Source of the DNA: a bacterium | GTDB taxonomy: Bacteria; JAAXHH01 | DNA: 64,000 bases | Direction of reading: 5' to 3' | Assembly: GCA_963665755.1 (NCBI GenBank) | Contig: OY762445.1 | Span: 146,224 to 210,223, forward strand | In this document: positions 10,551 to 60,107 of the stretch, piece after piece | Layout of the letters: every line of letters begins with the position of its first letter | How positions within the stretch are numbered: position 1 is the first letter of the stretch | Notes under the pieces: generated by a model | What the model saw: only the letters and a program-made list of their open reading frames with translations | The model's database searches: none | What the model was told of the DNA's origin: nothing | Made by a program: the position numbers and the translations under genes

Positions 10551-11951
10551 ATGGTGGACAGATCCTACCTGTTCGATGACGACGCCATGCGCGACTTTAT
10601 CGTAAACGGCTACCACGTGATCAACGTGGATCAGCCGGTTGCGCTCCACGACGGGATTTACGAGAAGACGAAGGCGATCATCGACGATGACGGGAATCCG
10701 GGAAACAACCTGTTGCCGCGTGTGCCCGAGATCCAACAGGTCTACGACGATCCTGCCGTTCAAGGCGCACTGACGAGTCTGCTCGGACCGGACTACGTCA
10801 TGCACGCTCACCGCCACCCGCACGTGAACCCGCCGAACAGCCGTGGAGGCAACTGGCACAAGGACAGTTACTGGGGTTACAGCAAGGTGCGGGATCACCA
10901 TCCGCGGTGGATCATGGCCATGTACTACCCCCAGGACACCCCGGTTGAAATCGGACCGACGGGGGTAATACCCGGCAGCCACTACTTCGAGTCCCGCGAA
11001 GAGACCGTCGGAGGGAACGGGTCGGTCCCAGATGGATTCCCCGCGAGCGGCAAGGCGGGAACCATTACCATCATACACTTCGACCTCTGGCACCGGGCGT
11101 TTCCGAACGCAACGGACAAGGTCCGCTATATGATGAAATTCCAGTTTACGAGAATGTCAGAGCCGAACCACCCCTGCTGGAACAATCAACGAGACGAAAT
11201 CGACCTGGGCGACCTGTCGGACGATCCCCGGAGCGCCATGTGGCGGAACATGTGGCACTGGCTTGCCGGAAACGGGTCTGCGGGAACCAGGCGGGAAGGC
11301 GAGGAACACGTCGAAGCGCACGCCCAGGACCTGACGCATGAACTCGAACAGAAGCGTTTGCACGCGGCCTATAGCCTGGCGGAGTGCGGAGAATCCGCGC
11401 TACCGCATCTCCTCGAAGCACTGCAACACGAAAGGGATGAGGTCCGGCGTGAAGCGTGCTACGGACTAAGCGCGCTGGGTACCGCCGCCGTCGAACCGCT
11501 GGTATCCCTGCTCGGACACGAAAACGAACGCGTCAGGGGTTACGCGGTTTACGCCCTTGGAGACATCCGGCACCACAACCCTTCGGTTACGGGGCACCTC
11601 GCGGGTCATACAGACGACCCATCGCCTTTTGTCCGGCAGAACGTGGCCGATGCACTGGGCCAGATCAGGCTGGCTGCGGATTCGTCCGTTCCCGCGCTGA
11701 TCGGTATGATGAAGGACGTGGATGAGCAGGTTCGGTCCAGAACCGCCTACGCGCTGGCCCGATTCGGAGTCGAGGCTCAGACGGCCATTCAAGACCTTGC
11801 GGATGCGTGCTACGATGAAAACCGGTATGTACAGGGGCATGCCGCCGTTGCACTCGAACAAATCGGCACGCCGGAAGCCCTGCGCGCGCTGCTGCACTGG
11901 CTGCAGGCCTCGCGGTGGTGTCCCCTGACGACTGCGAAGAGCACGTTTTAG
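10551..11951 (+). CDS. phytanoyl-CoA dioxygenase (PhyH) family domain fused to C-terminal PBS-lyase-type HEAT repeats
   Basis: AAAGGAGAAG SD. N-terminal about 220 aa with H-x-D (NWHKDSY) and a distal His (FDLWHRAF) in PhyH-like context. C-terminal about 200 aa with at least five repeats of the x-VR-x-x-A-x-x-ALG-x-IG type (EVRREACYGLSALG, ERVRGYAVYALGDI, PFVRQNVADALGQI, EQVRSRTAYALARFG, RYVQGHAAVALEQIG). Confidence 0.75.
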   Translation: MVDRSYLFDDDAMRDFIVNGYHVINVDQPVALHDGIYEKTKAIIDDDGNPGNNLLPRVPEIQQVYDDPAVQGALTSLLGPDYVMHAHRHPHVNPPNSRGGNWHKDSYWGYSKVRDHHPRWIMAMYYPQDTPVEIGPTGVIPGSHYFESREETVGGNGSVPDGFPASGKAGTITIIHFDLWHRAFPNATDKVRYMMKFQFTRMSEPNHPCWNNQRDEIDLGDLSDDPRSAMWRNMWHWLAGNGSAGTRREGEEHVEAHAQDLTHELEQKRLHAAYSLAECGESALPHLLEALQHERDEVRREACYGLSALGTAAVEPLVSLLGHENERVRGYAVYALGDIRHHNPSVTGHLAGHTDDPSPFVRQNVADALGQIRLAADSSVPALIGMMKDVDEQVRSRTAYALARFGVEAQTAIQDLADACYDENRYVQGHAAVALEQIGTPEALRALLHWLQASRWCPLTTAKSTF

Positions 11952-12036: not shown

Positions 12037-14007
12037 CTACCAGTCGTGTATCATGTGGCCCTGTCCCGGATAGAACAAGGCATCCACAAAGAACGACAGA
12101 ACGATACCCAGCGTGTAACCGAGCAGGACGCCAAGGAAGAACCGCTGACCCGTGCGGTAGGTGCTGGTCCCGACCTTCAGCAGAATGAACTTGGCGAGCC
12201 ATGCGAGGAAGACGGACAGGATCGAGTCCCGGATATTGCTGGCGAAACAAATGGCGAAGCCCACCGGGGCGAGGGGCCACCAGACCAGCCAGTGCCGGAG
12301 TTTCAGCAGCAACAGGAAGGTCGCCGCGCCAGCCGCCATGAACCAGGGCTCGTTCTGACCCAGGGACAGCGGGTTCTTCATCCAGGTTACGATCTCGTCG
12401 TAGTAGTTCTTGTTGAGCCCGTCGAACGCCCCGCCTCCGAAGTTATAGGCTCCAATCGCATAGCCCGACTGTATCGAGTAAGCCAACGCCGTGACCATGC
12501 TTACGAGAAAGGTGGCGGCGAGTACGAGCAGCAACCCTTTCTTCCTCGGCCAGAATCCGTCCGCCAGGCGATCTGCCAGCACGACCGAACCCATACCCAG
12601 CCCGCGCCAGTTCCGCGCATACGCGCTGGCCAGGCCCAATGCCGTAAGGCTCGGCGCGGATACGTTCCCTGAACCCAGGGACAGCACCGTGATCTGGTGT
12701 GCGTTCACGGGCAAATCGAGGAACACCACCCCTGTTTCGGCGATCACCTTTGTCGTGCCGAAGTATAGAATGAACAGAAAGGCCAGGAACACCGCCATCA
12801 CCGAAAACGCCAGGCCGGACTGGTACAGCCATGCGCAGATAAATACGGATCCGAGCAGGAACCCGATCACGGCGGTCCTGTAGGATACGAGTTCCTTTGT
12901 ATCGTCCAGTCCGGAATCCCGCCCCATCGCTTTCTTGACTACGCCCGCCAGGTGCCGCCTGGCGGCCCAGAGACTGTAACCCACGTACACCAGGAATCCG
13001 CCGAAAAACTGTGCGTTGACGCCGCCGCTGCCGCCGGGACCGCTGCTGGCCGTGTTGAGTCCTATGTAATTCAGTGCGCCGATTTCGAGCAGCCCCAGCA
13101 TGAAGAAGACCCAGATGCTCAGCAGGATATCTACGTTGATAAAGTAGCCGAAGCCGAGCATGTAGGGGCTGATACGCAGGGGAATGGAGGGGAACATCGG
13201 ACTCAGTTGGAGCGGAGTCTCGAAGAAGGTGCCGACGGGGAGCTGCGGTACGATATGGGCGAAGGACACGATATTCCAGAGTGCGATGGCCAGCGCGAGG
13301 ACGAACCCGATCTGGAACAGGCGGTCATAGACCAGTTTCGGCCAGCGACCGGGCGACTGGTCCCCGGTTATGAGTTCGAGGGGTACCTGGACGAGGGGAA
13401 AAGTTAGCCGCTCGTACTCCACCCACTGTTTTCTGAATATGGTGGCCACGCAGGCGCCGACGACGAATATCGCGACGAAAAAGCTCATCCACCAGGCGAC
13501 GGGGATGATCCACGGGGACCAGGGTATGGCGCCTCCCGGAGGCAGCCCTTCGTAAAACCATCCCATGGCGTTGTTCTGGTTGCTCGCCACGAGCCATTCC
13601 GGCAGAAAGGGGTGGAAGAGCTCCACCCACTGGTTTTCCGGCTGGGCGAAGTAAAAGGGCGTCGATATGATGGTCAGGAAGTACGACACGAAGGCCTTGC
13701 CGGGTATGAGGCTCGAAATCAGCAGGATGCAGAAGATCAGCGCGAGTTCTCTGCCGGTGAAGGCGGCCCGTTGGTACATACCGCGTACAAGAGGGTTGTA
13801 CACGAAGGTGACGAGCAGAAAGAGAGCCAGGGCGGAAATGGGCAGGTGGGCCACCGACATGCGGGACGTGTGCAGGATATAGGTCCCGTACGTCACCCAG
13901 ATGTTGAGGATGATGGCCAGGACCAGTCCCGTGGCGAGGGACCTCGACGTGATCACGGAGGTTGGCGGGGTTTCCCTTGTCGGTATATGCTTGGTTGTGT
14001 CAGTCAA
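12037..14007 (-). CDS. large polytopic membrane protein of unknown function (paralog of 47334-49337)
   Basis: 656 aa with at least 14 predicted TM segments. Shares an ERLTFPL motif and overall architecture with the 674-aa protein at 47334-49337. Immediately downstream (63-bp gap) of the sulfatase gene. Confidence 0.7.
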   Translation of the reverse strand: MTDTTKHIPTRETPPTSVITSRSLATGLVLAIILNIWVTYGTYILHTSRMSVAHLPISALALFLLVTFVYNPLVRGMYQRAAFTGRELALIFCILLISSLIPGKAFVSYFLTIISTPFYFAQPENQWVELFHPFLPEWLVASNQNNAMGWFYEGLPPGGAIPWSPWIIPVAWWMSFFVAIFVVGACVATIFRKQWVEYERLTFPLVQVPLELITGDQSPGRWPKLVYDRLFQIGFVLALAIALWNIVSFAHIVPQLPVGTFFETPLQLSPMFPSIPLRISPYMLGFGYFINVDILLSIWVFFMLGLLEIGALNYIGLNTASSGPGGSGGVNAQFFGGFLVYVGYSLWAARRHLAGVVKKAMGRDSGLDDTKELVSYRTAVIGFLLGSVFICAWLYQSGLAFSVMAVFLAFLFILYFGTTKVIAETGVVFLDLPVNAHQITVLSLGSGNVSAPSLTALGLASAYARNWRGLGMGSVVLADRLADGFWPRKKGLLLVLAATFLVSMVTALAYSIQSGYAIGAYNFGGGAFDGLNKNYYDEIVTWMKNPLSLGQNEPWFMAAGAATFLLLLKLRHWLVWWPLAPVGFAICFASNIRDSILSVFLAWLAKFILLKVGTSTYRTGQRFFLGVLLGYTLGIVLSFFVDALFYPGQGHMIHDW

Positions 14008-14069
14008 TCAGGTCTCGCATCAGTTTATGGATATTGGATCAGCGGGCCGTCGCGGCGATTTTCAATGCA

Positions 14070-15419
14070 TCAGGCAGACTGTCGTTCCCGCCATTCGACC
14101 TCCATGGGATCGGGGATGGCGTAGGGTTTGACGCGTTGTTCGTGCAGCCACTCCGACAGGTAGTGATCCATGCGTTGCTGAATCTCCGGCCGTTCCCGGG
14201 CCAAGTTGTACGTCTGATTCGGGTCGTTACGCATATCATACAAGGCCACCGGATCGAACCGGTAACCGAAGTCATCGTACGTCCTGACCATGAGATGGCC
14301 GGGTGTCCGCACCGCCCGTTGCAGCGTGTACAGGCCGTGACCCCAGACCAGGTAGTCGTGCAGCTGGCAGCGTCCGGTCGCAAGTCCTTCCGCGAAAGAC
14401 CGGCCGTCATAGTATTCCGGTACTTCCCCGCCAATCAGGTCGATCAGCGTGGCGCTGAAATCCACATTGTACAGCAGGTCGTCACTAGAGGATCCTGGCG
14501 GCGTAGTCCCCGGCCACTTGATGATCAGCGGGACCCGGTGTATGCATTCGTCGGCGCAGACGTGATCCCCGTAGATGCCGTGCTCTCCCATGGCCTCGCC
14601 GTGATCCGCCGAGATAATGACCGCCGTGTCGTCCAGGCCGCCCAGGGCGTCCAGTATCTGCTCCACGTGGTGGTCGGTGTAGCGGATCTCCGTGTCGTAC
14701 CCGGTCACCATGTGATTCAGATCGCGGGTATCCCGGATGGCGTCCGGCATGTTCGGCGTGGGACTGGGCCGGTCGTGGGGAAAGAGGTGGGACGCGGTGA
14801 ACCAGCCGTCGATGTCCTGGTGGCCGCGGATCGTCTCGTTGTCCGGCCAACTCACAGCCGGCGGATGGGCCGCCATGCGGTCGAACCGGTCGCGGGGCGC
14901 TTCGTAGACCCGGTGCGGGTCCCAGTAGTTGATGTACAGGAAGTAATCGTCCCGGCCGCCGTTCGCGGCGATCCATTTCAGTACGGCTTCGTTGACCTCG
15001 TTCGCCGTCTCGTCCCCCGTCTTCAGGTTGGGCGAATGGAACTCCGACCAGCCCAGCCCGAACCAGGTCGCGCAGTGCCGGGTGGGGAAGTTGGAGAAGC
15101 AGACCGTGTCGTAGCCGTGTTGGCGCAACTTTCTCTGAACCAACTGGTTCCGTTCGTCGGGTCCGCCGTAGCGCTGCTCCAGGATGTGCAGCTTGGAAGC
15201 GGGACCGCCGTGGGTCACCACGCCGTTGTTGATCCCGAAACGGCCGGTTATCCAGCCGTGCCGCGAAGGCATGCAGGGCGAATCCGCGCAGTAGTACCGG
15301 TCGAACCGCATCCCCTGCGCGGCGATTTCATCGATGGCGGGCGAGGTGGGCCGGCCGTAGCCGTAGCAACCCAGGTGGTCGGGCCTCAGACTGTCGATGT
15401 CGAAATAGACGATGCGCAA
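14070..15419 (-). CDS. Cys-type sulfatase (alkaline-phosphatase superfamily), no signal peptide
   Basis: DSLRPDHLGCYGY metal-binding N-terminus. C-x-P-x-R FGly motif (CMPSRHG). No N-terminal signal sequence. Confidence 0.8.
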   Translation of the reverse strand: MRIVYFDIDSLRPDHLGCYGYGRPTSPAIDEIAAQGMRFDRYYCADSPCMPSRHGWITGRFGINNGVVTHGGPASKLHILEQRYGGPDERNQLVQRKLRQHGYDTVCFSNFPTRHCATWFGLGWSEFHSPNLKTGDETANEVNEAVLKWIAANGGRDDYFLYINYWDPHRVYEAPRDRFDRMAAHPPAVSWPDNETIRGHQDIDGWFTASHLFPHDRPSPTPNMPDAIRDTRDLNHMVTGYDTEIRYTDHHVEQILDALGGLDDTAVIISADHGEAMGEHGIYGDHVCADECIHRVPLIIKWPGTTPPGSSSDDLLYNVDFSATLIDLIGGEVPEYYDGRSFAEGLATGRCQLHDYLVWGHGLYTLQRAVRTPGHLMVRTYDDFGYRFDPVALYDMRNDPNQTYNLARERPEIQQRMDHYLSEWLHEQRVKPYAIPDPMEVEWRERQSA

Positions 15420-15457: not shown

Positions 15458-16729
15458 CTACGCCGCAACGGCCTTGTCGATGATTACCTTCATCTTGTCG
15501 CCGTGTTTGTGTCGGCTGGCGGCTTCGATTAGGGCTTCGATGGGTAGAAACCCGTTGTCCTGCAGCCAGTGGGCTATGGCGGCCAAAGCGGCGCCTTTCG
15601 GTCCGCCCGTCTTTCTGAAATCCCCGGTCACCACGTTGGACGGACCGGGCGGACCGAGCGGACCGGGACACCCTCCAAGCTCGGTACCAAGCTTCTTGTC
15701 CGCGATCACCAGGGTATGGCCGCCGATGCGGGACCGCACCTTGTCCAGCCCATCCTGCGATATGACGATCATGATGTCGGGACAGTCGATCCCGGTGTAA
15801 TGGATGGGGTTCCTGGAGAGGATGACTTCCGCGACGGAAAACCCCGTGCCGATCGTGATGGGGTAGTCGCCCTTCTTGGTGGCGGACAGGCCGGCCGTAA
15901 TGCCCGCGGTGGACAGCAGGTCACCCGCGGACTGGATGGCCTCACCGGCCGAACCTGCGACGATGATCTCCAGGCGGCCGTCCAGCGGCGCATCGCATGT
16001 GCGTTCGATTGGTTTAAGGGCGTCAAAGAGGGACTGGCCCATCAACCGGTGCGGCCGGGATACAGGCCGCTGGTTCCTTGTTACCACGCTCTCGTAGTCC
16101 GCCGTATCATGGAGTTCCTGTACTTTCCTCATTCCGTATGCGGGACACATCTCCACGATTTCGATGAGGGAGAATCCAGGTGTGGACAGGGCCTCCTTCC
16201 AGAGCTCGGAAGTGTCCTTGCCGATGAAAGTCCGCGCGGTGTACGCCGCGCCGGCGTTGTGCGCCAGGGCGCAGATGTCGTATCCTGGCACGGCCGATTC
16301 CGGTCGTTCCGGTTCCTTGAACTCGGTGGAGGACAGTCCGCTGGTCTGGCCGCCCGTCATCCCGTAAACCATGTTGTTCTGAACCACGAGGGTGAGATCC
16401 AGGTTGTGCCGTGCGGCTTCGAGCAGGTGCTGCAGGCCGATCGTGGCGCCGCCGTCGCCCTGCAGGGCGATGATCTTCTTCTCCGGATGCTCCAGGCCCA
16501 TGCGGATGCCCATGGCCAGGGCGACCGCCCGGCCGTGGAGCCCGTGAATGGTGTGGCAGGTCAGGAGCGGATCCACGAGCCCCGTGCAGCCGATGTCGCT
16601 TACCACGATGACGTCGAGGGGGTCCACGTCCATGTCCGCGAGCGCCTTGCTCATGGATTTGTTGGCGACGGTATGACCACAGCCCGGGCAGTAGGGCATT
16701 TTCAGGTCATTCAGGATGGTTTCCTGCAT
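15458..16729 (-). CDS. 2-oxoacid:ferredoxin oxidoreductase beta subunit (TPP-binding) fused to gamma domain
   Basis: N-terminal YCPGCGH with a GDGG TPP motif. C-terminal about 190 aa POR-gamma-like domain. 19-bp overlap with the alpha gene. Confidence 0.8.
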   Translation of the reverse strand: MQETILNDLKMPYCPGCGHTVANKSMSKALADMDVDPLDVIVVSDIGCTGLVDPLLTCHTIHGLHGRAVALAMGIRMGLEHPEKKIIALQGDGGATIGLQHLLEAARHNLDLTLVVQNNMVYGMTGGQTSGLSSTEFKEPERPESAVPGYDICALAHNAGAAYTARTFIGKDTSELWKEALSTPGFSLIEIVEMCPAYGMRKVQELHDTADYESVVTRNQRPVSRPHRLMGQSLFDALKPIERTCDAPLDGRLEIIVAGSAGEAIQSAGDLLSTAGITAGLSATKKGDYPITIGTGFSVAEVILSRNPIHYTGIDCPDIMIVISQDGLDKVRSRIGGHTLVIADKKLGTELGGCPGPLGPPGPSNVVTGDFRKTGGPKGAALAAIAHWLQDNGFLPIEALIEAASRHKHGDKMKVIIDKAVAA

Positions 16730-17844
16730 TGCCTTACTCCTTCCGCGATCTCCTGCGGGGTGATCATATTGCCGATTTTGTTGACACCGAAGACCCGGCC
16801 GTCCTGACGGTTGCCATAGAGCAGTTCCCGAAGCAGGCCGGCGATATTCTCCTCCACGACGACTATGTGCTCGTATGCGTCAAGCAGTTCGTAGATACGG
16901 GGCGGTACCGGCAGCAGCGTTTTCATGACCAGGAGCGAGACGGAGTCGCCGCCCGAGCGGAGTGAACCGACCGCTTCCCTGGCGGCTTCCGCCGAGATGC
17001 CGTAGGTCAGGATGACCGTATCGGCGTCTTCGACCCGATCGTGGTCGAAATAGGTGTAGTCATCGATACGCTGTTCGATCTTGTTCTTGAGCCGTTCGGT
17101 ATTGCCGAGGGCTTCGGGGCTGTTCTTCTGCGTAATACCTTCCATGTCATGGGTAGATGAATTCAGCCGGACCTGGTGCAGGTCGTTGCCCAGAGGCAGG
17201 AATGGCGGCGCCAGGTTCCCGTTGACCCCGTAGGTCTTGTATTCCCCGTTTCCTTCGAACACGTGGCGTTCCGCCCGCTGCACTTCCCGCAGGCCGGAAA
17301 TGTCCATGTTCTGGTTGGTCATGACCATTTCTTTCGAGGTCAATAACACCACCGGGGTGCGGAGGTTTACCGACGTATGCACGCTGGCGGCCGCCATGTC
17401 CCAGCAATCGTTCAGATTCGAGGGACAGAACACCGGAATCGAATACCCTCCGGAGATGCATCCCCTGAGGAGGAGCAGATCCCCCTGGCCGCCCGTCGTG
17501 GCCGAACCGGTACTCGGCCCGAGGCGCTGGGCGAGGATAATGACCATGGGCAGTTCCATCATGAAGGACATGTTGATGGATTCGATCATCAGGGCGAAGC
17601 CTGGAAAGGCGGAGGCGGTGACGGGAAACACGCCCGAAGACGAAAAACCGGCGGACCACTGCAGCGCGGTGATCTCGTCCGGCGCCTCCAGGGCGATGGG
17701 AATGCGCTGCTTGGCGCCCGCGAAGAGCCAGTTGACGGGCGTGATGGGGTATCCGATGTAGGCGCCCACCCCGGCCCGTGCCATCGCCTCGATGATCAGT
17801 CTGGATCCGTCCAGGAAGACCATGCGTTCACCGGCAGCAGTCAT
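16711..17844 (-). CDS. 2-oxoacid:ferredoxin oxidoreductase alpha subunit
   Basis: KorA/PorA-like N-terminal domain (GYPITPVN) and core domains; 377 aa. Confidence 0.8.
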   Translation of the reverse strand: MTAAGERMVFLDGSRLIIEAMARAGVGAYIGYPITPVNWLFAGAKQRIPIALEAPDEITALQWSAGFSSSGVFPVTASAFPGFALMIESINMSFMMELPMVIILAQRLGPSTGSATTGGQGDLLLLRGCISGGYSIPVFCPSNLNDCWDMAAASVHTSVNLRTPVVLLTSKEMVMTNQNMDISGLREVQRAERHVFEGNGEYKTYGVNGNLAPPFLPLGNDLHQVRLNSSTHDMEGITQKNSPEALGNTERLKNKIEQRIDDYTYFDHDRVEDADTVILTYGISAEAAREAVGSLRSGGDSVSLLVMKTLLPVPPRIYELLDAYEHIVVVEENIAGLLRELLYGNRQDGRVFGVNKIGNMITPQEIAEGVRQCRKPS

Positions 17845-17859: not shown

Positions 17860-19875
17860 TTATTCCTGCATGGATTCCGCCACGATCTCGGCGATATCCC
17901 GGACCCGCATGGGTTCGCCGGCCCGCTTGTTGGCGTCGTTCATCATTCTGGCACAGAAGGGACAGCCCACGGCCAGGGTGTCCGCCCCGGTTTCTCTGGC
18001 CTCCCGGAAGCGATTATCACTGACCGCTTCCCTGCCTTCTTCTTCTTCTTTCCAGACCTGGGCGCCGCCCGCTCCGCAGCAGAATGACCGGTTCCTGCTC
18101 CGGGCCATCTCCACCAGGTTTGGCCCGGCGGCCGCCAGCGCTTCCCGAGGCGCTTCGTACTCGCCGCCGTGGCGTCCAAGATAACACGGGTCGTGATAGG
18201 TTGTCCGCGTCTCATCCTCTCCGTTTACCGCGATCCTGCCGTCGTTCCTGAGATCGGCGATGAGCTGCGTGTGGTGCATGACCTCGTAACGCCCGCCCAG
18301 CGCGCCGTACTCGTTCTTCAGGGTATGGAGGCAATGGGGGCAACCCGTAACGATGCGTTTACGGTCGGCGCCCGCCGCGTTCAACGTTTCGATGTTGCCT
18401 TCGGCAGCCATACTGAAAAGATACTCGTTTCCGGCCCTTCGCGCCAGATCTCCCGTGCAGGACTCGTCGTTTCCGAGCACGGCGAAGTCTACACCGGACC
18501 GGTGCATGACCGTGGCGATGGCCCGTGCCGTGTCCCGGGCGCCCGGGTCGAATGCGCCGGCGCAGCCGACCCATAGCAGCACGTCGTAGTCCGGATTCTC
18601 CGCGACGGTCGGCACCTTGAAATCCAGCTCCCTGGTCCACTCCATCCGGTCTCCGGCCATTTGCCATGGATTGCCGTTCCGTTCGATTCCGGTAAAGGCA
18701 CCTTTCAGTTCATTCGGAAAGGCACTTTCCATCAGCACCTGGTTCTGGCGCATGGAGAGGATGTCGAACATGGGTTCGTTGCCGACGGGGCAGGCTTCGG
18801 TACAGGCCCCGCAGGTCGTACACGCCCACAACGCGCTTTCGCTCATGGCGTAGGTGAGTAGTGGTTCTTCGTCGCCTCCACCCGTCGCCAGGGATTTCAT
18901 GTGATCGCGAAGGTGGAACCGCTTGTTCACCTCGAGTGCAGCGGGAGACAATTCCTTGCCGGTGGCATAGGCCGGGCAGGCGTCCTGGCACCGGTTGCAC
19001 ATGATGCAGGCGAAGGCGTCCGTAATGTGGGTCCGGTTCAGGTCGGTGATCCGGGCGGCGCCGAACTGCTCTACGGTTTCATCCTCTAAATCCAGGGCAT
19101 CCATCGTACCGGGACTGCTTCGATCCGGGGACGTCATCAGGTTGAAGGGGCCCATGAACAGATGGGCATGTTTCGAATAGGGGAACCAGGGCAGGAAGGC
19201 CAGCACCAGCCCGACGGCGATCCACCAACTGGCATGCAGGCCTGCCGTCAGGAATGAAGGTTCCAGATCCGCCCAGAGTCCGGCTGCCAGCGCGGCAACA
19301 GGCTGCCAGGGGTCCGGTCCGTGTATGGCGATGTCGAAAGAAGCGCCCAGCAGCCGGAAACCGACGTGGCCGAGGATGAAAAACCCCACGATCAGGGAAT
19401 CGCGCTTGATGCCGTCCACCGCGCCCGGGTGCAATTTAACCTGCGGAGCGACGTCGAGGGTCCTGGACTTCACGATGAATCGTCGGATGAGCAGGACAGC
19501 CATACCTGCCAGCACCGCCGCGGTCATTAGATCGACGAGGAGCCGATATATCCGCCCGGCGGCGTTCTCGCCCGGGAAAACGAAGCCGGGTACCATGCCT
19601 TCCAGCACGTCTATCAGGTTGACTGCCACGTAGAGGATAAACCCCCACGCGATCGCCGTGTGGGCCAGGGAAACGAAAGGCCGGTTTCGGATCATGTTGT
19701 TCTGGCTGACCATTGCCTTGATCCCGGTCATCAACCGGCCGGCAGGTCTGTCCCAGGACAGGCGCCCCTGGCCTCGCGTAATTATGCGGATCATGCGCCG
19801 AAAGGTGACGGATGCCAGGTACAGCGAGACCACTGCGACGATCGCAAAGAGGATTTTTTCGATGGGAGAAAGCAT
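17860..19875 (-). CDS. membrane-bound Fe-S oxidoreductase: HdrE/DsrM/NarI-like TM domain fused to an HdrD/DsrK-like module (2x 4Fe-4S + 2x CCG); ETF:quinone oxidoreductase-like (EMO-type)
   Basis: N-terminal 5-6 TM helices with conserved His. CIMCNRCQDACP and CTTCGACTEACP ferredoxin motifs. Two CCG-type cysteine clusters (GCAGAF; CCGAGG). Sits directly upstream of etfA. Confidence 0.75.
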   Translation of the reverse strand: MLSPIEKILFAIVAVVSLYLASVTFRRMIRIITRGQGRLSWDRPAGRLMTGIKAMVSQNNMIRNRPFVSLAHTAIAWGFILYVAVNLIDVLEGMVPGFVFPGENAAGRIYRLLVDLMTAAVLAGMAVLLIRRFIVKSRTLDVAPQVKLHPGAVDGIKRDSLIVGFFILGHVGFRLLGASFDIAIHGPDPWQPVAALAAGLWADLEPSFLTAGLHASWWIAVGLVLAFLPWFPYSKHAHLFMGPFNLMTSPDRSSPGTMDALDLEDETVEQFGAARITDLNRTHITDAFACIMCNRCQDACPAYATGKELSPAALEVNKRFHLRDHMKSLATGGGDEEPLLTYAMSESALWACTTCGACTEACPVGNEPMFDILSMRQNQVLMESAFPNELKGAFTGIERNGNPWQMAGDRMEWTRELDFKVPTVAENPDYDVLLWVGCAGAFDPGARDTARAIATVMHRSGVDFAVLGNDESCTGDLARRAGNEYLFSMAAEGNIETLNAAGADRKRIVTGCPHCLHTLKNEYGALGGRYEVMHHTQLIADLRNDGRIAVNGEDETRTTYHDPCYLGRHGGEYEAPREALAAAGPNLVEMARSRNRSFCCGAGGAQVWKEEEEGREAVSDNRFREARETGADTLAVGCPFCARMMNDANKRAGEPMRVRDIAEIVAESMQE

Positions 19876-19933
19876 CGGCGTCCTGCGATCTCGATGTGCC
19901 GCCGAGTGAAGACGCGATGCACGGTGTGCCGGA

Positions 19934-20920
19934 TTACCGGCCCAGCCGTTTCTTCACTTCTTCCGCTATGGCGGGCAGGTAGCTGAACAGGTCGCCGGCG
20001 ATACCGTAGTGAGCGTACTTGTAGATCGGCACGTCGGCGTCCTTGTTGATGGCAACGATCACACGGGCGTTTTTCATGCCCGCCAGGTGCTGAATCGCAC
20101 CGGAGATCCCACAGGCAATGTACAAATCGGGCTGTACCGTTTTCCCGGTCTGGCCGACCTGGTGGGCATAGGGGATCCAACCGGCGTCCACCGCGGCCCG
20201 GCTCGCGCCGAGCGCGCCGCCCAGGGCGTCAGCCAGTTCCCGTACTGGCTGAAAGCCCTCCGGTCCGCCCACGCCGCGGCCGCCGGAAACGATGATGCTT
20301 GCTTCGGTCAGGCTGACCTTGCCGTCCGCGGTCGCGACGGACTCCACCCGGGTTGGGATATCGTCTTCTGCCAGGTCGGCAGGAATGTCGACGGCTTCCC
20401 CGGTCCTGGTTTCATCCCGGGTGGCGGGTTGGAATACATTGCGCCGTACCGTGATGATCCGGTGTCCGGTCCCTGTGAATTTAATGGTGGAAACCAGGTT
20501 GCCCACCAGGGCCGGTCGGACCGCGACCAACTGGTCTCCCTCGATGTGCAGATCCGTGCAGTCCGGCGCCAGGCCCGCATCGGTGAGGGCGGCGACATAG
20601 GCCGTTAGCTCGAGGCCGGCCGTACTCGCCCCCGCCAGGATTACGGTGGGCGGTTCGTTCTCCAGTATCCGCGCCAGCAGTTTCGCATAGGGCTCCACCC
20701 GGTAACGGCTCAGAGAAGCGTCTTCCGTGGTATATACGCGGTCCGCGCCGGCTTCGATGGCCTGCCTTGCGATATCGCCGACCTGGTCGCCGAAAACGAC
20801 GGCGGTCAGGGATCCGCCGAGATCCCCGGCGACTTTCACCGCGGCGGCCATCGCCTGCCAGACGATCGGGTCCGCCTGCCCATCCTCCTGCTCAATCCAT
20901 ACGAGTACGTTGCTTGCCAT
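19934..20920 (-). CDS. etfA: electron transfer flavoprotein alpha subunit
   Basis: Canonical EtfA N-terminal fold and C-terminal FAD-binding domain; follows etfB by 15 bp. Confidence 0.85.
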   Translation of the reverse strand: MASNVLVWIEQEDGQADPIVWQAMAAAVKVAGDLGGSLTAVVFGDQVGDIARQAIEAGADRVYTTEDASLSRYRVEPYAKLLARILENEPPTVILAGASTAGLELTAYVAALTDAGLAPDCTDLHIEGDQLVAVRPALVGNLVSTIKFTGTGHRIITVRRNVFQPATRDETRTGEAVDIPADLAEDDIPTRVESVATADGKVSLTEASIIVSGGRGVGGPEGFQPVRELADALGGALGASRAAVDAGWIPYAHQVGQTGKTVQPDLYIACGISGAIQHLAGMKNARVIVAINKDADVPIYKYAHYGIAGDLFSYLPAIAEEVKKRLGR

Positions 20921-20935
20921 CTGAGATGTTTCCGC

Positions 20936-21727
20936 CTAAATGACCTTTTCTTCCATCAGCCGGTCTACCAGGTGCCTGGCCGCGTCTGCGGGATCGCCAT
21001 CGATCATTTCGACATTCCCCTCCCTGATTGGGGGAAGCTCCGCCTGCCAGGCGACCTTCGAAGCACCGGCACCTACAGCGGACGCATCGAGACCGAGATC
21101 TTCACATTTCCAAATGGGAATACTGGCCCTGGCCGCCTTGCGAATGCCGATGAGGCTCGGGTACCTGGGCTCGTTGATCTCCTTGACGACGGTGATCAGG
21201 GCCGGAAGGCCGCTGGTGACCGTTTCCCGGGCACGCTCCAGCAGGCGTACGGCCGTGATGGTCCGGGCCGACGGGTCCAGGTTCTTGAGATCCGCCACGT
21301 AGGAGATGAGCGGGACGCCGAGCAAGGCCGCGATCTGCACGGCCGTCGCGGCGGTATTGCCGTCTATCGCCGCCCTGCCGCCCACAATCAGATCGAATGC
21401 ACCGATCCTGCGGATGGCGGCGACCAGGATGCGCGCCGAAGTAAGGCAGTCGCTGTCCGCCATGACTGGGTCGGAGACAAGAATGGCTTCATCCACCCCC
21501 ATGGCCAGGGCGGTCTTCAACGCGTCGGCGGCTTCGGGAGGTCCCAGGCAAAGGGCGGTCACCTTGCCGCCATGCTCCTCCCGGGTCTGTATGGCCGTCT
21601 CCAGGGTGTATTCGTCCCAGGGATTGACGATCCGCGGTCCGCCCTCGGCGGAGAGTCTCATGCCGTCCATGGCGGCGGACAACTGTGCCGTATCGGGCGT
21701 CTGCTTCACCAGGGCGATGATATTCAA
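20936..21727 (-). CDS. etfB: electron transfer flavoprotein beta subunit
   Basis: Canonical EtfB sequence features; 263 aa. Confidence 0.85.
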   Translation of the reverse strand: MNIIALVKQTPDTAQLSAAMDGMRLSAEGGPRIVNPWDEYTLETAIQTREEHGGKVTALCLGPPEAADALKTALAMGVDEAILVSDPVMADSDCLTSARILVAAIRRIGAFDLIVGGRAAIDGNTAATAVQIAALLGVPLISYVADLKNLDPSARTITAVRLLERARETVTSGLPALITVVKEINEPRYPSLIGIRKAARASIPIWKCEDLGLDASAVGAGASKVAWQAELPPIREGNVEMIDGDPADAARHLVDRLMEEKVI

Positions 21728-21766
21728 CTAAACGTTTCCTTGTCATCACAGTACGGCTGTACGTGG

Positions 21767-22969
21767 TCAGTTCTGCCAGCAATCCGGATCGTAGCCGGGC
21801 ATTTCGCACCGGAGCGGCCGGTCGGTCCGGTTGCCGAACACGTAATCAGCCTGCATGAGCTGGTGTATCTGCGACGTGCCCTCGTAGATCACGGCGCTCT
21901 TGCTGTTGCGCAGATGGCGTTCCACGTCGTATTCGTCGGAGTATCCGTAGGCGCCGTGCACCTGCACCGCGTCGCTGGCCGTGGCGAAGGCCGATTCGGT
22001 GCAGTACCACTTGGCCATGCTCGTCTCGCGTGTGTTCCGTACGCCCCGGTTCTTAAGCCAGCCGACCTTGCGCACCGCCAGTTCGCCCAGGTCGATACGC
22101 TGCTTCATCTGGGCGATGAGTTGTTTCACGAGTTGATGGTCGCCGATAGGCTGGCCGAAAGTCCGCCGCTGGCGGGCGTACGACACGGACGCTTCCAGGC
22201 AGTATTTCATCAGGCCGACAGCACCCGCCGCGACGGTATAGCGGGCATTGTCCAGGCAGGACATGGCGATTTTGAATCCTTCTCCTTCTTCTCCAAGCCG
22301 ATGGGTTTCCGGCACGGGGACCTCGTCCATGTTGATCCAGCCCGTGTTGCTTGCCCGCACCCCCATCTTGCCCTTTATGGTACCGGTGGTCAGTCCTTCC
22401 CAGCCGCGCTCCAACAGGAATGCAGTGATACCGCGCGTACCCTCTTCCTGACTGGTTTTAGCAAAAACGAGGAACCTGTCGGCCACGTCCGAAAGTGTGA
22501 TCCACATTTTCTCGCCGCTGACCAGGTAGGTATCACCCTTCTTCCGTGCACGGCTGGTCATGGCGGCCACGTCTGATCCCGCGCCGGGCTCCGTCAGCCC
22601 GAAACAGGCGATGTGCTCACCCGTGGCCAGGGAAGGGAGGAACCGTTCCTTCTGCTCCTCCGTGCCCCACTGAAAGAGGGGCAGGGCGTGCAGCCCAAGG
22701 TGGACGGCAATCGTCTCCCGGATCGAAGAGTCGGCCCACTCCAGGCCCTCCGAAAGCAGTCCCAGGGAAATAAAGTCCATGCCGGCCCCGTCGTAACGAA
22801 CCGGGAGGCAGATACCCATGAATCCCTGGGCGGCCATCTTGGGCAGCAATTCGTGGGGAAAGGTACCGTTTCGATCATGTTCCCTGATGGTCGGAAGGAT
22901 CTCGTTGCGGGCGAAATCGTAGACCATCCGTTCCACCATTTTCTGTTCTTCGCTTAACTCGAATTCCAT
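21767..22969 (-). CDS. acyl-CoA dehydrogenase
   Basis: ACAD N-terminal, middle and C-terminal domains ([17 protein letters not shown]). First gene of the minus-strand operon that continues into etfBA. Confidence 0.85.
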
Positions 22970-47179: not shown

Positions 47180-47333
47180 GTCTGACTTGGTATCCGACCA
47201 TGCATGACCCTACGAGTTTTAAATAGATAACTGCCAATGTATATAATTAGTATCTAGTTGGCGTACAGGGTGTTACAGGAATCAACCGCTGTATCCCTTC
47301 AGGGGGTGTCCGGTGTCGGTGCGTGAAGAGGAA

Positions 47334-49337
47334 ATGAAGGAAGACAGACCGGAACAGTATCGGAATGCCGATACCGCGTTGTTCGGAGAATCGGACGAAC
47401 CCTACCTTTCAGGATTCAACCTGAAGACGATCTGGGCGTGCCTGTTCGTCGGTTTCGTCATGTTGCCGGGATCGATCTACCTGAGCCTGGTGACGGGTGG
47501 GCAGACCGGCGCGGCGGACTGGGTTACCGTCATCCTGTTCCTCGAGATCGCCAAACGGTCCCTCGTCAAGATGACCCGGCAGGAAATCATGATCCTGTAC
47601 TGGGCCGCGGCCGGACTGGCCGCCGCGGGGAACGCGATGAACACCGGCATCACCGGCGGTCCCTTCGCCCACCTGATCTGGGAGCAGTACTACCTGCAGT
47701 CTCCGGAAGCCACGGGCATCGCCACGCTGATCCCCACCTGGGTCGTTCCGACGCTGGATTCCGGGGCGCTGGCGAGCCGGACGTTCTTCCACATGGACTG
47801 GTTCGTGCCCGTCCTCGTCCTCACCGCGGTGACCGTCCTCTTCGCGGTCAATTCCTATTCGATGGGGTACATTCTCTTCCGGGTTACCAACGACGTGGAG
47901 AGGCTGACCTTCCCCCTGGCGAGGGTGCACGCGGGCGGCGCAACGGCGCTGGCCGAGACTTCGCAGAACAAGGAGGGCTGGCGATGGCGGGCATTCAGCA
48001 TCGGATCCGTAATCGGGGTGTCCTGGGGACTCCTGTACGTGATGATACCCATCCTGTCCAGCACGTTCCTGGTCACGCCCATCACCATATTGCCCATCCC
48101 CTTCATCGATTTCACCACCAGTCTCAAGGAAGTGTTGCCCGCGACCATGGTGGGCATCGGGACCGATCTCGGCACCCTCGTCGCGGGATTCGTCCTGCCC
48201 TTCTGGGTCGTGATCGGCACCTTCGTGTCGTCGGCCGTAATCGCCCTCGTCGCCAATCCCCTGCTCTATCACAACGGCATCCTGACCACCTGGGAACCCG
48301 GGATGTCGCTCATTCCGACCCAGATATCCAACAACATCGATTTCTGGCTCAGCTTCACCATTGGCGCCTCCCTCGTCATCGGCATCGTTGGATTCACGGC
48401 GACCATCCGGGCCATACTGAAATCCAACCGGGAGAAGCGTAACGACCCCGACGGGGACACGGGGGTGCGCCCGACGCCGGAGGGCCGGGGCGACCTGCCG
48501 ATCTGGCTCGTATTCATCTTCTGGTTCGTCAGCACGACGGGATTCGTGGTCATACTCTACTTTCTGATCCCCGACTTTCCGTGGTGGATCAGCGCCATCT
48601 TCGGATACCTCTGGTCGCCGGTATTTTCCTATATCGGGGCCCGGATGATCGGCATCACCGGCTCGCCATACGGTTCCTCCTTCCCCTTCGTCAAGGAAGC
48701 ATCCTTCCTGCTGTCAGGCTACAAGGGGGTCGCCGTGTGGTTCGCGCCGATACCCATCTTCGAACACGGAAAGGTGGCGGAAACCTTCAAGCAGCTGGAT
48801 CTCACCAAGACGACCTTCGGCAGCGTGGTCAAGCTGACCGCGGTGACCACCATCCTGATGTTCGTCTGCAGCTTCATCTTCTACTCGCTCGTGTGGAAGC
48901 TCAACCCGATCCCGTCGGCAGCCTATCCCTTCGTGCAGAAGATGTGGCCCCTCAACGCGGCCATGCGGACCATCTGGGTGAAGTCCACCCTGCCCGGCGG
49001 CATCACGTTCATCTTCGATATCATCAAGATCGAGTATATCATCGCCGGCCTGGGCGTAACGGGCGGGCTGTTCGGTCTGCTCACGCTCGTGGGCGCCTCG
49101 CCGCTTTTCTTCTACGGCCTGGTCGGCGGCCTGGCCATGCCGCTCTGGCAGACCCTGCCGACCTTCTTCGGCGCCATCCTTGGGCGCTACTACTTCTCCA
49201 AGCGCTTCGGCGAAGAGAAATGGATGGCATACGTGCCCATTGTTCTGGCCGGCTACGGGGCCGGCATCGGACTCATAGGCATGATCGCCATCGCCATCGC
49301 GCTGATATCCAAGGCGATTTCGCAGATCGTGTACTGA
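47334..49337 (+). CDS. large polytopic membrane protein of unknown function (paralog of 12037-14007)
   Basis: GAGGAA SD before ATG at 47334. At least 14 TM segments. Shares the ERLTFPL motif and architecture with 12037-14007. Confidence 0.7.
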   Translation: MKEDRPEQYRNADTALFGESDEPYLSGFNLKTIWACLFVGFVMLPGSIYLSLVTGGQTGAADWVTVILFLEIAKRSLVKMTRQEIMILYWAAAGLAAAGNAMNTGITGGPFAHLIWEQYYLQSPEATGIATLIPTWVVPTLDSGALASRTFFHMDWFVPVLVLTAVTVLFAVNSYSMGYILFRVTNDVERLTFPLARVHAGGATALAETSQNKEGWRWRAFSIGSVIGVSWGLLYVMIPILSSTFLVTPITILPIPFIDFTTSLKEVLPATMVGIGTDLGTLVAGFVLPFWVVIGTFVSSAVIALVANPLLYHNGILTTWEPGMSLIPTQISNNIDFWLSFTIGASLVIGIVGFTATIRAILKSNREKRNDPDGDTGVRPTPEGRGDLPIWLVFIFWFVSTTGFVVILYFLIPDFPWWISAIFGYLWSPVFSYIGARMIGITGSPYGSSFPFVKEASFLLSGYKGVAVWFAPIPIFEHGKVAETFKQLDLTKTTFGSVVKLTAVTTILMFVCSFIFYSLVWKLNPIPSAAYPFVQKMWPLNAAMRTIWVKSTLPGGITFIFDIIKIEYIIAGLGVTGGLFGLLTLVGASPLFFYGLVGGLAMPLWQTLPTFFGAILGRYYFSKRFGEEKWMAYVPIVLAGYGAGIGLIGMIAIAIALISKAISQIVY

Positions 49338-49455: not shown

Positions 49456-50406
49456 CTAGTGGTATTCCCGCAGCGGATTAATTGATTCAGCCACGAGATC
49501 GGCTATGTCCCGCGGCACCCGCGGATTGAACGGACCGCCCTCGCCCGCCTCCACGTCTTCCCACCCCCCGATGATCATCGCCTCGATTACCGCGGAATAG
49601 TTGTACTGCCGGCTATTCATGAACCGCAGATGTTCGAGGCCTGATATGCAGGCTTCCACGCAGGCAGATTCCGCGAAGTCGCCCCGACGCTGGGCGTTGT
49701 TGATTTCATCCGCCGCGCGGGCCGCGACGATGGCGATGCCCGAGGTGTGGCCCCTGGCGCCCATTTCGGCGGCCCGGGTGCTCCGGTCGCCGATCCCCCA
49801 CATGACGATGCCGTCATCGCCGATGCCTTCGATAAGCGGAGCGACCTCTTCCTCGTTCGTACCCACCTTCACGCCGACGATGTATTGGGAGTCTTTGACG
49901 AGCCGGGTGATCGGGTTCACGTAGTCCTTCGACCGCATGTACAGCAGGAAGCGGGCGCCGCAGGATGCACCGAGCCGTTCGGCGAAAGCCATGTAATCCT
50001 CGTAGGTCTCTTCGTGATCGGCTACGCCGGTCAGCGGCATGATGAGGTAAACGTCCGGCGGACGGGGCAGGGCCGATTGCCTGCGAACGAGGTCCCCGGC
50101 CTGGGAAAGGGGATTCGGCACGATACCCGACATCAGGAACCCGTCGTCACCCATCTCCTCGCCGGTCGCAGCGATGACCCGCATCTGGTCCTCGAAGGAA
50201 AAGTGGTGGATCAGGCTCGTGCCCGCGATCCCGATCACGCGCTTCCGGTTTCCGTCCAGATAGTTGTTGTCCATCAGGTACCGGACGTTCTTCCGGTGAC
50301 CGTCCAGGTCGATGGCGCGGCCGCGGTAAGGCACGACGGGTATGGCGGTTACGGAATTCAGCGTGTCGTACAGTGCTTCTGTATGCATTGATCGGTATCC
50401 TTTCAT
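49456..50406 (-). CDS. dihydrodipicolinate synthase/N-acetylneuraminate lyase family (class I aldolase) protein
   Basis: TIM-barrel aldolase-like N-terminus (AIPVVPY..IDLDGHRKNVRYLMD); assignment moderate. Confidence 0.5.
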   Translation of the reverse strand: MKGYRSMHTEALYDTLNSVTAIPVVPYRGRAIDLDGHRKNVRYLMDNNYLDGNRKRVIGIAGTSLIHHFSFEDQMRVIAATGEEMGDDGFLMSGIVPNPLSQAGDLVRRQSALPRPPDVYLIMPLTGVADHEETYEDYMAFAERLGASCGARFLLYMRSKDYVNPITRLVKDSQYIVGVKVGTNEEEVAPLIEGIGDDGIVMWGIGDRSTRAAEMGARGHTSGIAIVAARAADEINNAQRRGDFAESACVEACISGLEHLRFMNSRQYNYSAVIEAMIIGGWEDVEAGEGGPFNPRVPRDIADLVAESINPLREYH

Positions 50407-58700: not shown

Positions 58701-60107
58701 ATGGCTAAGACACGCCGCCGAAAGAAGAAGCGCCCCAATATCGTATTGCTGGGCGTGGATTCCCTTCTGGCCGATCACATGAGCTGCTACGGATATCATC
58801 GGCACACCACGCCCCATATCGACCGGTTCGCCGAGGGAGGCGCGCTGTTCGAGAAGACCTACAGCGCCCATATCCCCACGACGAGCGCCTATGCCTCCAT
58901 GCTGACCGGCCTGGACGCCTTTGGCACCCAGGTAGTGGCTCTGCGGCATAAGGGCGGACTCCGGGAGGACGTGCAGACGCTGCCCGAGATCCTGCGGGAG
59001 CACGGATATGCGTCCACCTGCGTGGGTTTCGGGGGAAACCCGTCCTCGCGAGGTTTCGACAAGTACATCGAGTATCCGAGCTGGGGCAGCTGGAACGAGG
59101 GGCGCAGTCCCAAGGCGCAGAATCTGAACGACGTGGCGATCCCGGAGCTGGACCGGCTGGCCAAACGGCGCGGACCTTTCTTCCTGTTTCTGCGCCATAT
59201 GGATCCTCATGCGCCGTACCTGCCGCCGGAACCCTACGAACGCATGTTCTATCACGGCGACGAGTGCGATCCTGAAAACCGGTCCATGGATCCCGTCAAG
59301 GCGTTCAAGCCTTTCTGTGATTTCTTCGCCGCGTGGATGCCTCCCGGCATCACCGACAAAGACTACGTCATCGCCCAGTACGACGGCGCCGTCGCGTATA
59401 TGGACGCCTGTATCCAGACCATCTTCAACGCTCTGGAAGCCCACGGCATCATGGACGAAACGATCGTGATCTTAAATGGGGATCACGGCGAGACCCTCTA
59501 CGACCACGAATGCTGGTTCGATCACCACGGGCTCTACGATGTTACGCTCCACGTCCCGCTCATCATCCGGTATCCAGGCAGGATCCCTGCGGGTAGCCGC
59601 ATCAGCGGGTACAACCAGCACAAGGATCTCGTCCCCACCATCATGGATCTGGCCGAAATCGACGCTGGGATCGACTACGACGGGGACAGCCTGATGGCGC
59701 TGGTCGACGGCACGGTTTCCTCCTTCGACAGCGAATTCTATATCACCGAGTGCACGTGGATGCGCAAGCACGGCTGGCGGACGCCGCAGTGGAAGCTGAT
59801 GGTCGCCCTGGAGCCGGATTTCCACTTCAAGCCGACGATTGAGCTGTACAACCTGGTGGAGGACCCGGACGAGAACCGGAACCTGGCCGAGGAGTTGCCG
59901 GAGGTGGTGAGCCTGCTCAAGCGGCGGATGAACAACTGGATACGGAAGCGGGTGAAAGAGACCGGAAAGCGTAATCCCATGCTTACCCAGGGGGACTGGC
60001 ACGGGCACGAGGGCGTGGGTGCCTTCAAGACATCGCAGCAGGCCTACGACACGATGCACATCGGCGACCCTGATCAGGCCGCCAGTCTGCAGGCGCGCAG
60101 CAGGTAG
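58701..60107 (+). CDS. sulfatase-fold (alkaline-phosphatase superfamily) hydrolase/transferase with Thr at the FGly position; no signal peptide
   Basis: DSLLADHMSCYGY metal-binding N-terminus. The position of the C-x-P-x-R motif reads IPTTSAY (Cys->Thr, Arg->Tyr). Basic N-terminus MAKTRRRKKKRP. Confidence 0.75.
   Translation: MAKTRRRKKKRPNIVLLGVDSLLADHMSCYGYHRHTTPHIDRFAEGGALFEKTYSAHIPTTSAYASMLTGLDAFGTQVVALRHKGGLREDVQTLPEILREHGYASTCVGFGGNPSSRGFDKYIEYPSWGSWNEGRSPKAQNLNDVAIPELDRLAKRRGPFFLFLRHMDPHAPYLPPEPYERMFYHGDECDPENRSMDPVKAFKPFCDFFAAWMPPGITDKDYVIAQYDGAVAYMDACIQTIFNALEAHGIMDETIVILNGDHGETLYDHECWFDHHGLYDVTLHVPLIIRYPGRIPAGSRISGYNQHKDLVPTIMDLAEIDAGIDYDGDSLMALVDGTVSSFDSEFYITECTWMRKHGWRTPQWKLMVALEPDFHFKPTIELYNLVEDPDENRNLAEELPEVVSLLKRRMNNWIRKRVKETGKRNPMLTQGDWHGHEGVGAFKTSQQAYDTMHIGDPDQAASLQARSR

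Follow-up and report, generated by a model that had tools for sequence, protein, structure and literature searches.

A predicted OPT/Yellow-Stripe-fold membrane protein of the DUF6785 family encoded beside an atypical, signal-peptide-less sulfatase-family hydrolase: a possible import-then-cleave system

Organization of the locus

Within the 64-kb window analyzed here (the whole stretch of DNA, to which all positions refer), two neighbouring minus-strand genes encode a 449-residue S1 sulfatase-family hydrolase bearing an FGly motif (14070..15419) and, downstream of it, a 656-residue DUF6785+DUF6784 membrane protein (12037..14007) that is a predicted secondary transporter of the OPT/Yellow-Stripe fold. 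A sequence-only reading of the same DNA proposed that this pair takes up a sulfated substrate and desulfates it in the cytoplasm; it gave the order and strand of the two genes correctly but placed them 63 bp apart, whereas the sulfatase stop and the start of the DUF6785 gene are separated by a spacer of 62 nt (14008..14069, minus strand). This spacer contains neither a sigma-70-like promoter nor an intrinsic-terminator-like site (the terminator-like matches are all intragenic), and an alignment of orthologs reveals no conserved promoter-like block in it: conservation is limited to the region of the start codon, outside which the length differs between orthologs. The two genes are probably co-transcribed.

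Upstream on the same strand are genes for the beta/gamma (15458..16729; Pfam TPP_enzyme_C+POR) and alpha (16711..17844; Pfam POR_N+PFOR_II) components of a 2-oxoacid:ferredoxin oxidoreductase (OFOR). The interval from the OFOR-beta stop to the sulfatase start measures 38 nt and is free of terminator-like sites, and the OFOR genes (15458..17844) possibly belong to the same transcription unit as the sulfatase. They are preceded by a same-strand cluster (17860..22969) comprising a CCG/4Fe-4S membrane protein (17860..19875; Pfam CCG+Fer4), ETF alpha, ETF beta and an acyl-CoA dehydrogenase, where the ETF and dehydrogenase genes were assigned from synteny with one orthologous locus (L001) and from family clustering. 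On the other side, a plus-strand gene (10551..11951) that is convergent with the DUF6785 gene encodes a PhyH-type Fe(II)/2-oxoglutarate dioxygenase fused to HEAT repeats (PhyH, 2.5e-14; HEAT_2, 6e-34), and it is found downstream of DUF6785 in every orthologous locus.

A sulfatase-family enzyme with replaced sulfate-binding lysines

The 449-residue enzyme, which is translated from a TTG start, matches Pfam Sulfatase (PF00884; 2.3e-37) as well as SGSH_C. The sequence-only reading had described a canonical C-x-P-x-R motif without a signal peptide, and both features are confirmed: the motif is C49-M-P-S-R53-x4-T-G (CMPSRHGWITG), and a signal peptide cannot be encoded because an in-frame TAA occurs two codons 5' of the TTG. 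The protein must reside in the cytoplasm; at the very least, it does not leave through the Sec or Tat pathway. Among 23 members of its clade, drawn from several phyla, the entire C-x-P-S-R-x4-T-G pattern (C49, P51, S52 and R53 included), the metal ligands D7/D9, H169 and D272-H273-G274, and the initial M1-R2 are invariant.

Canonical S1 sulfatases bind sulfate through two lysines, K113 and K375 in Pseudomonas arylsulfatase numbering. In the alignment of the 23 clade members neither is kept: the GKxH segment is missing, with invariant R114-H115 following the gap, and the position of the second lysine is occupied by D285, next to H286, both likewise invariant. These replacements hold both against four canonical neighbours and against BT4656. 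Judged by these residues, the enzyme represents an atypical S1 clade; it is presumably a true sulfatase, but the label is shakier than the FGly motif alone would imply, both canonical lysines being replaced throughout the clade. Its PDB relatives reach a best E-value of only about 1e-24, those closest by sequence being carbohydrate sulfatases, and its matches to the NCBIfam equivalogs (arylsulfatase, PehA and choline sulfatase) fall far under their cut-offs. The name choline sulfatase, given to homologs by JGI, was considered and rejected: BetC structures match only at an E-value of 6.5e-9 or weaker and over a partial region.

The nearest relative of this enzyme within the window (phmmer, 3.6e-38) is the product of a second sulfatase-family gene (58701..60107, plus strand; Pfam Sulfatase, 2e-52), in which threonine replaces the FGly cysteine--its IPTTSAY aligns with SPCMPSR--and both lysines are likewise lost. 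A threonine nucleophile is found in phosphoryl-transfer members of the alkaline-phosphatase superfamily. The enzyme might, then, cut another ester (e.g., a phosphonate or a phosphate mono- or diester), with the adjacent transporter carrying that compound and the logic of import followed by cleavage left intact. Besides this threonine and the invariant R114-H115 and D285-H286, weak matches to Pfam Phosphodiest and Metalloenzyme (far under the curated cut-offs) and to the NCBIfam PehA 'phosphoric/sulfuric ester hydrolase' model and phosphonate monoester hydrolase structures (also far under cut-offs) point in this direction. We nevertheless consider it unlikely, given the invariance of the FGly pattern within the clade, the carbohydrate sulfatases as closest structural relatives by sequence, and the sulfatases paired with two other DUF6785 orthogroups (see below), which keep both lysines and, in one case, a GKWH motif as well.

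The sequence-only reading also reported that the window lacks any FGE or anSME gene, and Pfam and motif scans agree: FGE-sulfatase, Radical_SAM and SPASM have no match among the 48 genes called, and no window ORF of at least 200 residues contains the FGE hallmark motif or CxxxCxxC. Nor was such a gene found in the fetched loci, and the motif scan of all loci found no FGE motif, three weak GNxxE[WF] matches lacking the companion RVxRGGS. Since sulfatases are often served by FGE or anSME genes that lie elsewhere in the genome, the absence of such genes from 64 kb says little. The pattern CxxxCxxC occurs three times in the fetched loci.

The DUF6785 membrane protein and its predicted fold

The 656-residue protein is a full-length DUF6785/DUF6784 member that passes both Pfam gathering thresholds: PF20581 (DUF6785) scores 385.4 bits over residues 21-519 (E = 4.6e-115; cut-off 25), and PF20580 (DUF6784) scores 58.5 bits over residues 555-641 (E = 8e-16; cut-off 26.4). 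Among the 120 homologs listed, all contain DUF6785 and all but one, of 573 residues, contain DUF6784; the family as a whole has roughly 8,200 representatives. Its invariant residues include E87, E124, E199, R350, K606 and D642. The Pfam entries carry no function, and no mention of DUF6785, DUF6784, PF20581 or PF20580 was found in the literature searched. The earlier suspicion that the protein belongs to a DUF-only family is thus borne out at the sequence level by the Pfam search that the sequence-only reading had itself suggested, which matched these two domains and no OPT model. Even at E <= 10, Pfam yields only DUF6785/6784 for this protein and nothing for a second, 674-residue membrane protein encoded in the window (see below); an NCBIfam scan at a permissive threshold gave no OPT match; and profile HMMs of both membrane families, when compared with all PDB sequences (HvYS1 included), found nothing at E <= 10.

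The predicted structure is more informative. A model of the 656-residue protein (pLDDT 88.9; pTM 0.90) has about 16 long helices, where 14 or more transmembrane segments had been noted previously, and a hairpin at residues 264-277; a comparison with known transporter folds, also suggested at that time, returned HvYS1 as the only Foldseek match (TM 0.65/0.70). HvYS1 (PDB 7wsr/7wst; OPT superfamily, TC 2.A.67) thus resembles the predicted DUF6785 fold at an identity of just 12-15%. Prokaryotic OPT members, whose functions have mostly been deduced from gene context, typically span ~520-700 residues with 16 transmembrane segments (PMC3061005); the two proteins of the window are 656 and 674 residues long, with about 16 long hydrophobic helices in their models, and both models take the fold of HvYS1 (YS core plus scaffold). 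On the strength of predicted structure, both membrane proteins share the OPT/Yellow-Stripe fold, so that what had been called an unknown transporter family would in fold terms be a familiar one, and the models point to DUF6785 as a large and very divergent prokaryotic branch of that fold. It differs from the prokaryotic OPTs already described (subclusters 4A-G and 5A/C of Gomolplitinant & Saier 2011, and CptA) in that those are recognized by OPT sequence models, whereas DUF6785 is not.

HvYS1, a plant protein whose cargo is Fe(III)-phytosiderophore and whose proton site includes the aspartates Asp446/490/494, is a proton-coupled elevator-type symporter (PMC9691689), and the characterized OPT members are all cation:solute uptake symporters (PMC3061005). 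No bacterial member was reported as characterized as of 2011; genome context predicts oligosaccharides, not peptides, for the prokaryotic subcluster 4C (PMC3061005). Campylobacter jejuni CptA imports Cys-Gly. Prokaryotic OPT members linked to sulfatases were not found in the OPT literature examined. That the 656-residue protein transports at all is inferred, as are its direction, coupling ion and substrate.

Recurrence of DUF6785 beside sulfatases and other enzymes

DUF6785 loci were gathered using a 17-sequence subset of a 46-sequence alignment, and a genome scan turned up no fewer than 559 relatives, spread over several loci in each genome. In three of 11 DUF6785 orthogroups a sulfatase-family gene is directly adjacent on the same strand, in all cases without a signal peptide; two further orthogroups have a sulfatase within 5 kb; and six, along with most of the distant homologs sampled, have none nearby. 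Among genes more than 5 kb from DUF6785, sulfatases make up 8 of 449 (1.8%), which gives a rough binomial P of ~0.006 for three or more such orthogroups out of 11, in a sample whose orthogroups all belong to a single sulfatase-rich lineage and where one locus contributes two of the three adjacent pairs. Farther afield, a divergently transcribed sulfatase adjoins a 29%-identical DUF6785 homolog in another distant lineage, and in Poribacteria an ortholog of the 449-residue enzyme lies about 4 kb from a DUF6785 gene; its Firmicutes and Planctomycetes orthologs have no DUF6785 neighbour. Because a sulfate-binding signature was conceivable, basic residues were compared across the DUF6785 orthogroups; none is peculiar to the sulfatase-linked ones, each conserved Arg or Lys being kept in most of the others as well.

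Such adjacency could be functionally meaningless, the two genes being independent and merely chance neighbours in sponge- and coral-associated genomes that are rich in both. Each genome has many DUF6785 copies (at least 559 relatives in the scan), sulfatases are overrepresented in PAUC34f and Poribacteria (PMC7081726), and most orthogroups lack the association. We regard this as very unlikely, however, in light of the contrast between the 1.8% background and direct same-strand adjacency in three of 11 orthogroups, the missing signal peptide in every adjacent sulfatase, the retention of the adjacency across orthologs of 80-99% identity, and its recurrence in Poribacteria and the other distant lineage. 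The co-occurrence anticipated in the sequence-only reading is therefore above background but not obligatory.

Of the 327 genes lying within 2 kb of a DUF6785 gene, 54 are PhyH genes, compared with 1 of the 449 located more than 5 kb away. Other neighbours include SDR enzymes, xylose-isomerase-like TIM barrels, MR/MLE enolases, DHDPS aldolases and GH4; they are cytoplasmic catabolic enzymes, and the neighbours as a whole speak mostly for the breakdown of non-peptide compounds. In bacteria associated with sponges and corals, DUF6785 genes repeatedly neighbour cytoplasmic sulfatases and PhyH dioxygenases.

Of the 23 orthologous loci, at least 19 have the sulfatase. A complete chromosome, OX638340.1, is 99% identical over the DUF6785 gene. 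An apparent loss in six orthologous loci was rejected as a gene-calling artefact, tblastn having recovered the full gene, and true loss is confined to L015, L019 and L021, where DUF6785 follows OFOR-beta after 108-211 nt; the DUF6785 gene is intact in two of these and frameshifted in the third. C-terminal sulfatase remnants persist in L015 and L021, which shows the sulfatase to be ancestral and its loss secondary. OFOR synteny is kept in all orthologous loci that reach upstream of DUF6785, including these three, and this raises another explanation: that the transporter serves the upstream OFOR/ETF/acyl-CoA-dehydrogenase cluster by importing peptides, amino acids or 2-oxoacid precursors, the kind of cargo to be expected of an OPT-type 'oligopeptide' transporter, with the sulfatase-like gene an unrelated insertion. 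The short, terminator-free interval between OFOR-beta and the sulfatase is consistent with this, as are other DUF6785 copies that flank a 1,534-residue M28-peptidase/FtsX protein in the company of the 'peptide transporter' family, and the peptide cargo that genome context suggests for many prokaryotic OPTs (PMC3061005). Set against it are the ancestral presence of the sulfatase, the independent pairing of two other orthogroups with sulfatases where no OFOR genes are nearby, and the frameshift in DUF6785 in one of the genomes from which the sulfatase is gone; on balance we judge it fairly unlikely.

A proposed import-then-cleave model and its relation to known systems

The reading that we prefer, and to which we give about an even chance, is that an OPT-type importer feeds a cytoplasmic FGly-type ester hydrolase. 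The 656-residue protein would be a secondary-active importer of the OPT/Yellow-Stripe fold and, by analogy with characterized OPT members, probably an elevator-type symporter that is coupled to a cation (H+) and handles a substrate of a few hundred daltons. The compound brought into the cytoplasm would be small, organic and esterified; the likeliest candidate is a sulfate ester, for instance a sulfated sugar, a sulfated sugar acid or another host or algal metabolite. The ester group would then be removed inside the cell by the signal-peptide-less hydrolase encoded 62 nt upstream, and the product would pass to further steps, in which the PhyH/HEAT dioxygenase of the conserved convergent gene may take part. 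As for the sulfated-substrate uptake and cytoplasmic desulfation originally proposed, the cytoplasmic location of the enzyme and a pairing above background speak for it, but the replaced lysines leave the sulfatase step insecure.

Comparable systems exist. In Pseudomonas, atsRBC-atsA couples an ABC importer of aromatic sulfate esters to a cytosolic Cys-type arylsulfatase, and choline-O-sulfate uptake together with BetC is another combination of uptake with a cytoplasmic sulfatase. Both follow the logic proposed here, with a Cys-type FGly enzyme lacking a signal peptide and no maturase gene nearby. They differ in that their transporters are of the ABC or BCCT type, in place of a predicted OPT fold, and in that choline sulfatase structures are only distantly related to the 449-residue enzyme (E = 6.5e-9 or weaker), which lacks the canonical lysines.

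A broader proposal, which we advance tentatively and consider rather doubtful as a whole, is that DUF6785/DUF6784 constitutes a large, unrecognized OPT-fold branch that imports non-peptide organic esters (sulfated sugars or metabolites of host or algal origin, for example) to a dedicated cytoplasmic toolkit of FGly hydrolases without signal peptides and PhyH enzymes, forming an organosulfate route in sponge and coral symbionts. If the import-then-cleave reading is right, thousands of environmental proteins now known only as a DUF family would gain a fold, a probable mechanism (that of a cation-coupled, elevator-type OPT importer) and a class of substrates that can be tested; the chemical range of the prokaryotic OPT superfamily, few of whose bacterial members have been characterized, would widen; and sulfatase-rich sponge and coral symbionts would process sulfated compounds in the cytoplasm rather than the periplasm. 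Current understanding is not overturned, the advance being at the level of annotation.

Such a cytoplasmic route would be distinct from the periplasmic and extracellular sulfatase systems known from Bacteroidota, and the FGly hydrolases of the toolkit would include the clade whose active site has R-H/D-H where the two lysines would be. The exchange of two 'essential' lysines for R-H and D-H within a widespread cytoplasmic S1 clade of ~450-residue enzymes is a question of enzymology in its own right.

A second, remotely related membrane protein

The second OPT/YSL-fold membrane protein predicted in the window is encoded on the plus strand (47313..49337; 674 residues); its NCBI family name is 'peptide transporter', and it has no Pfam model. 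Its presence and its end were correctly given in the sequence-only reading, but the start proposed there, 47334, is internal to an ORF that begins at 47313. The two proteins had been described as paralogs, which holds in an ancient sense only: BLASTP aligns them at E = 0.005 with 23% identity over 171 residues, and hhalign relates the two families with 95.3% probability (E = 2e-8; 17% identity over 568 columns). By these comparisons the 674-residue protein is a very remote homolog of DUF6785 that belongs to a different family, rather than a close paralog. The ERLTFPL motif does occur in both proteins, as claimed; it falls within the region aligned profile to profile and includes positions that are invariant or nearly so in both families. 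A glycine-rich mid-section, also said to be common to the two, is clear in the first protein (residues 320-337), but an unsystematic look found nothing equally clear in the second. Convergent with the gene for the second protein is a minus-strand gene of the DHDPS (aldolase-type) family (49456..50406; Pfam DHDPS, 6e-8), and a convergent DUF6785/DHDPS arrangement is also seen in the loci of orthogroup 4.

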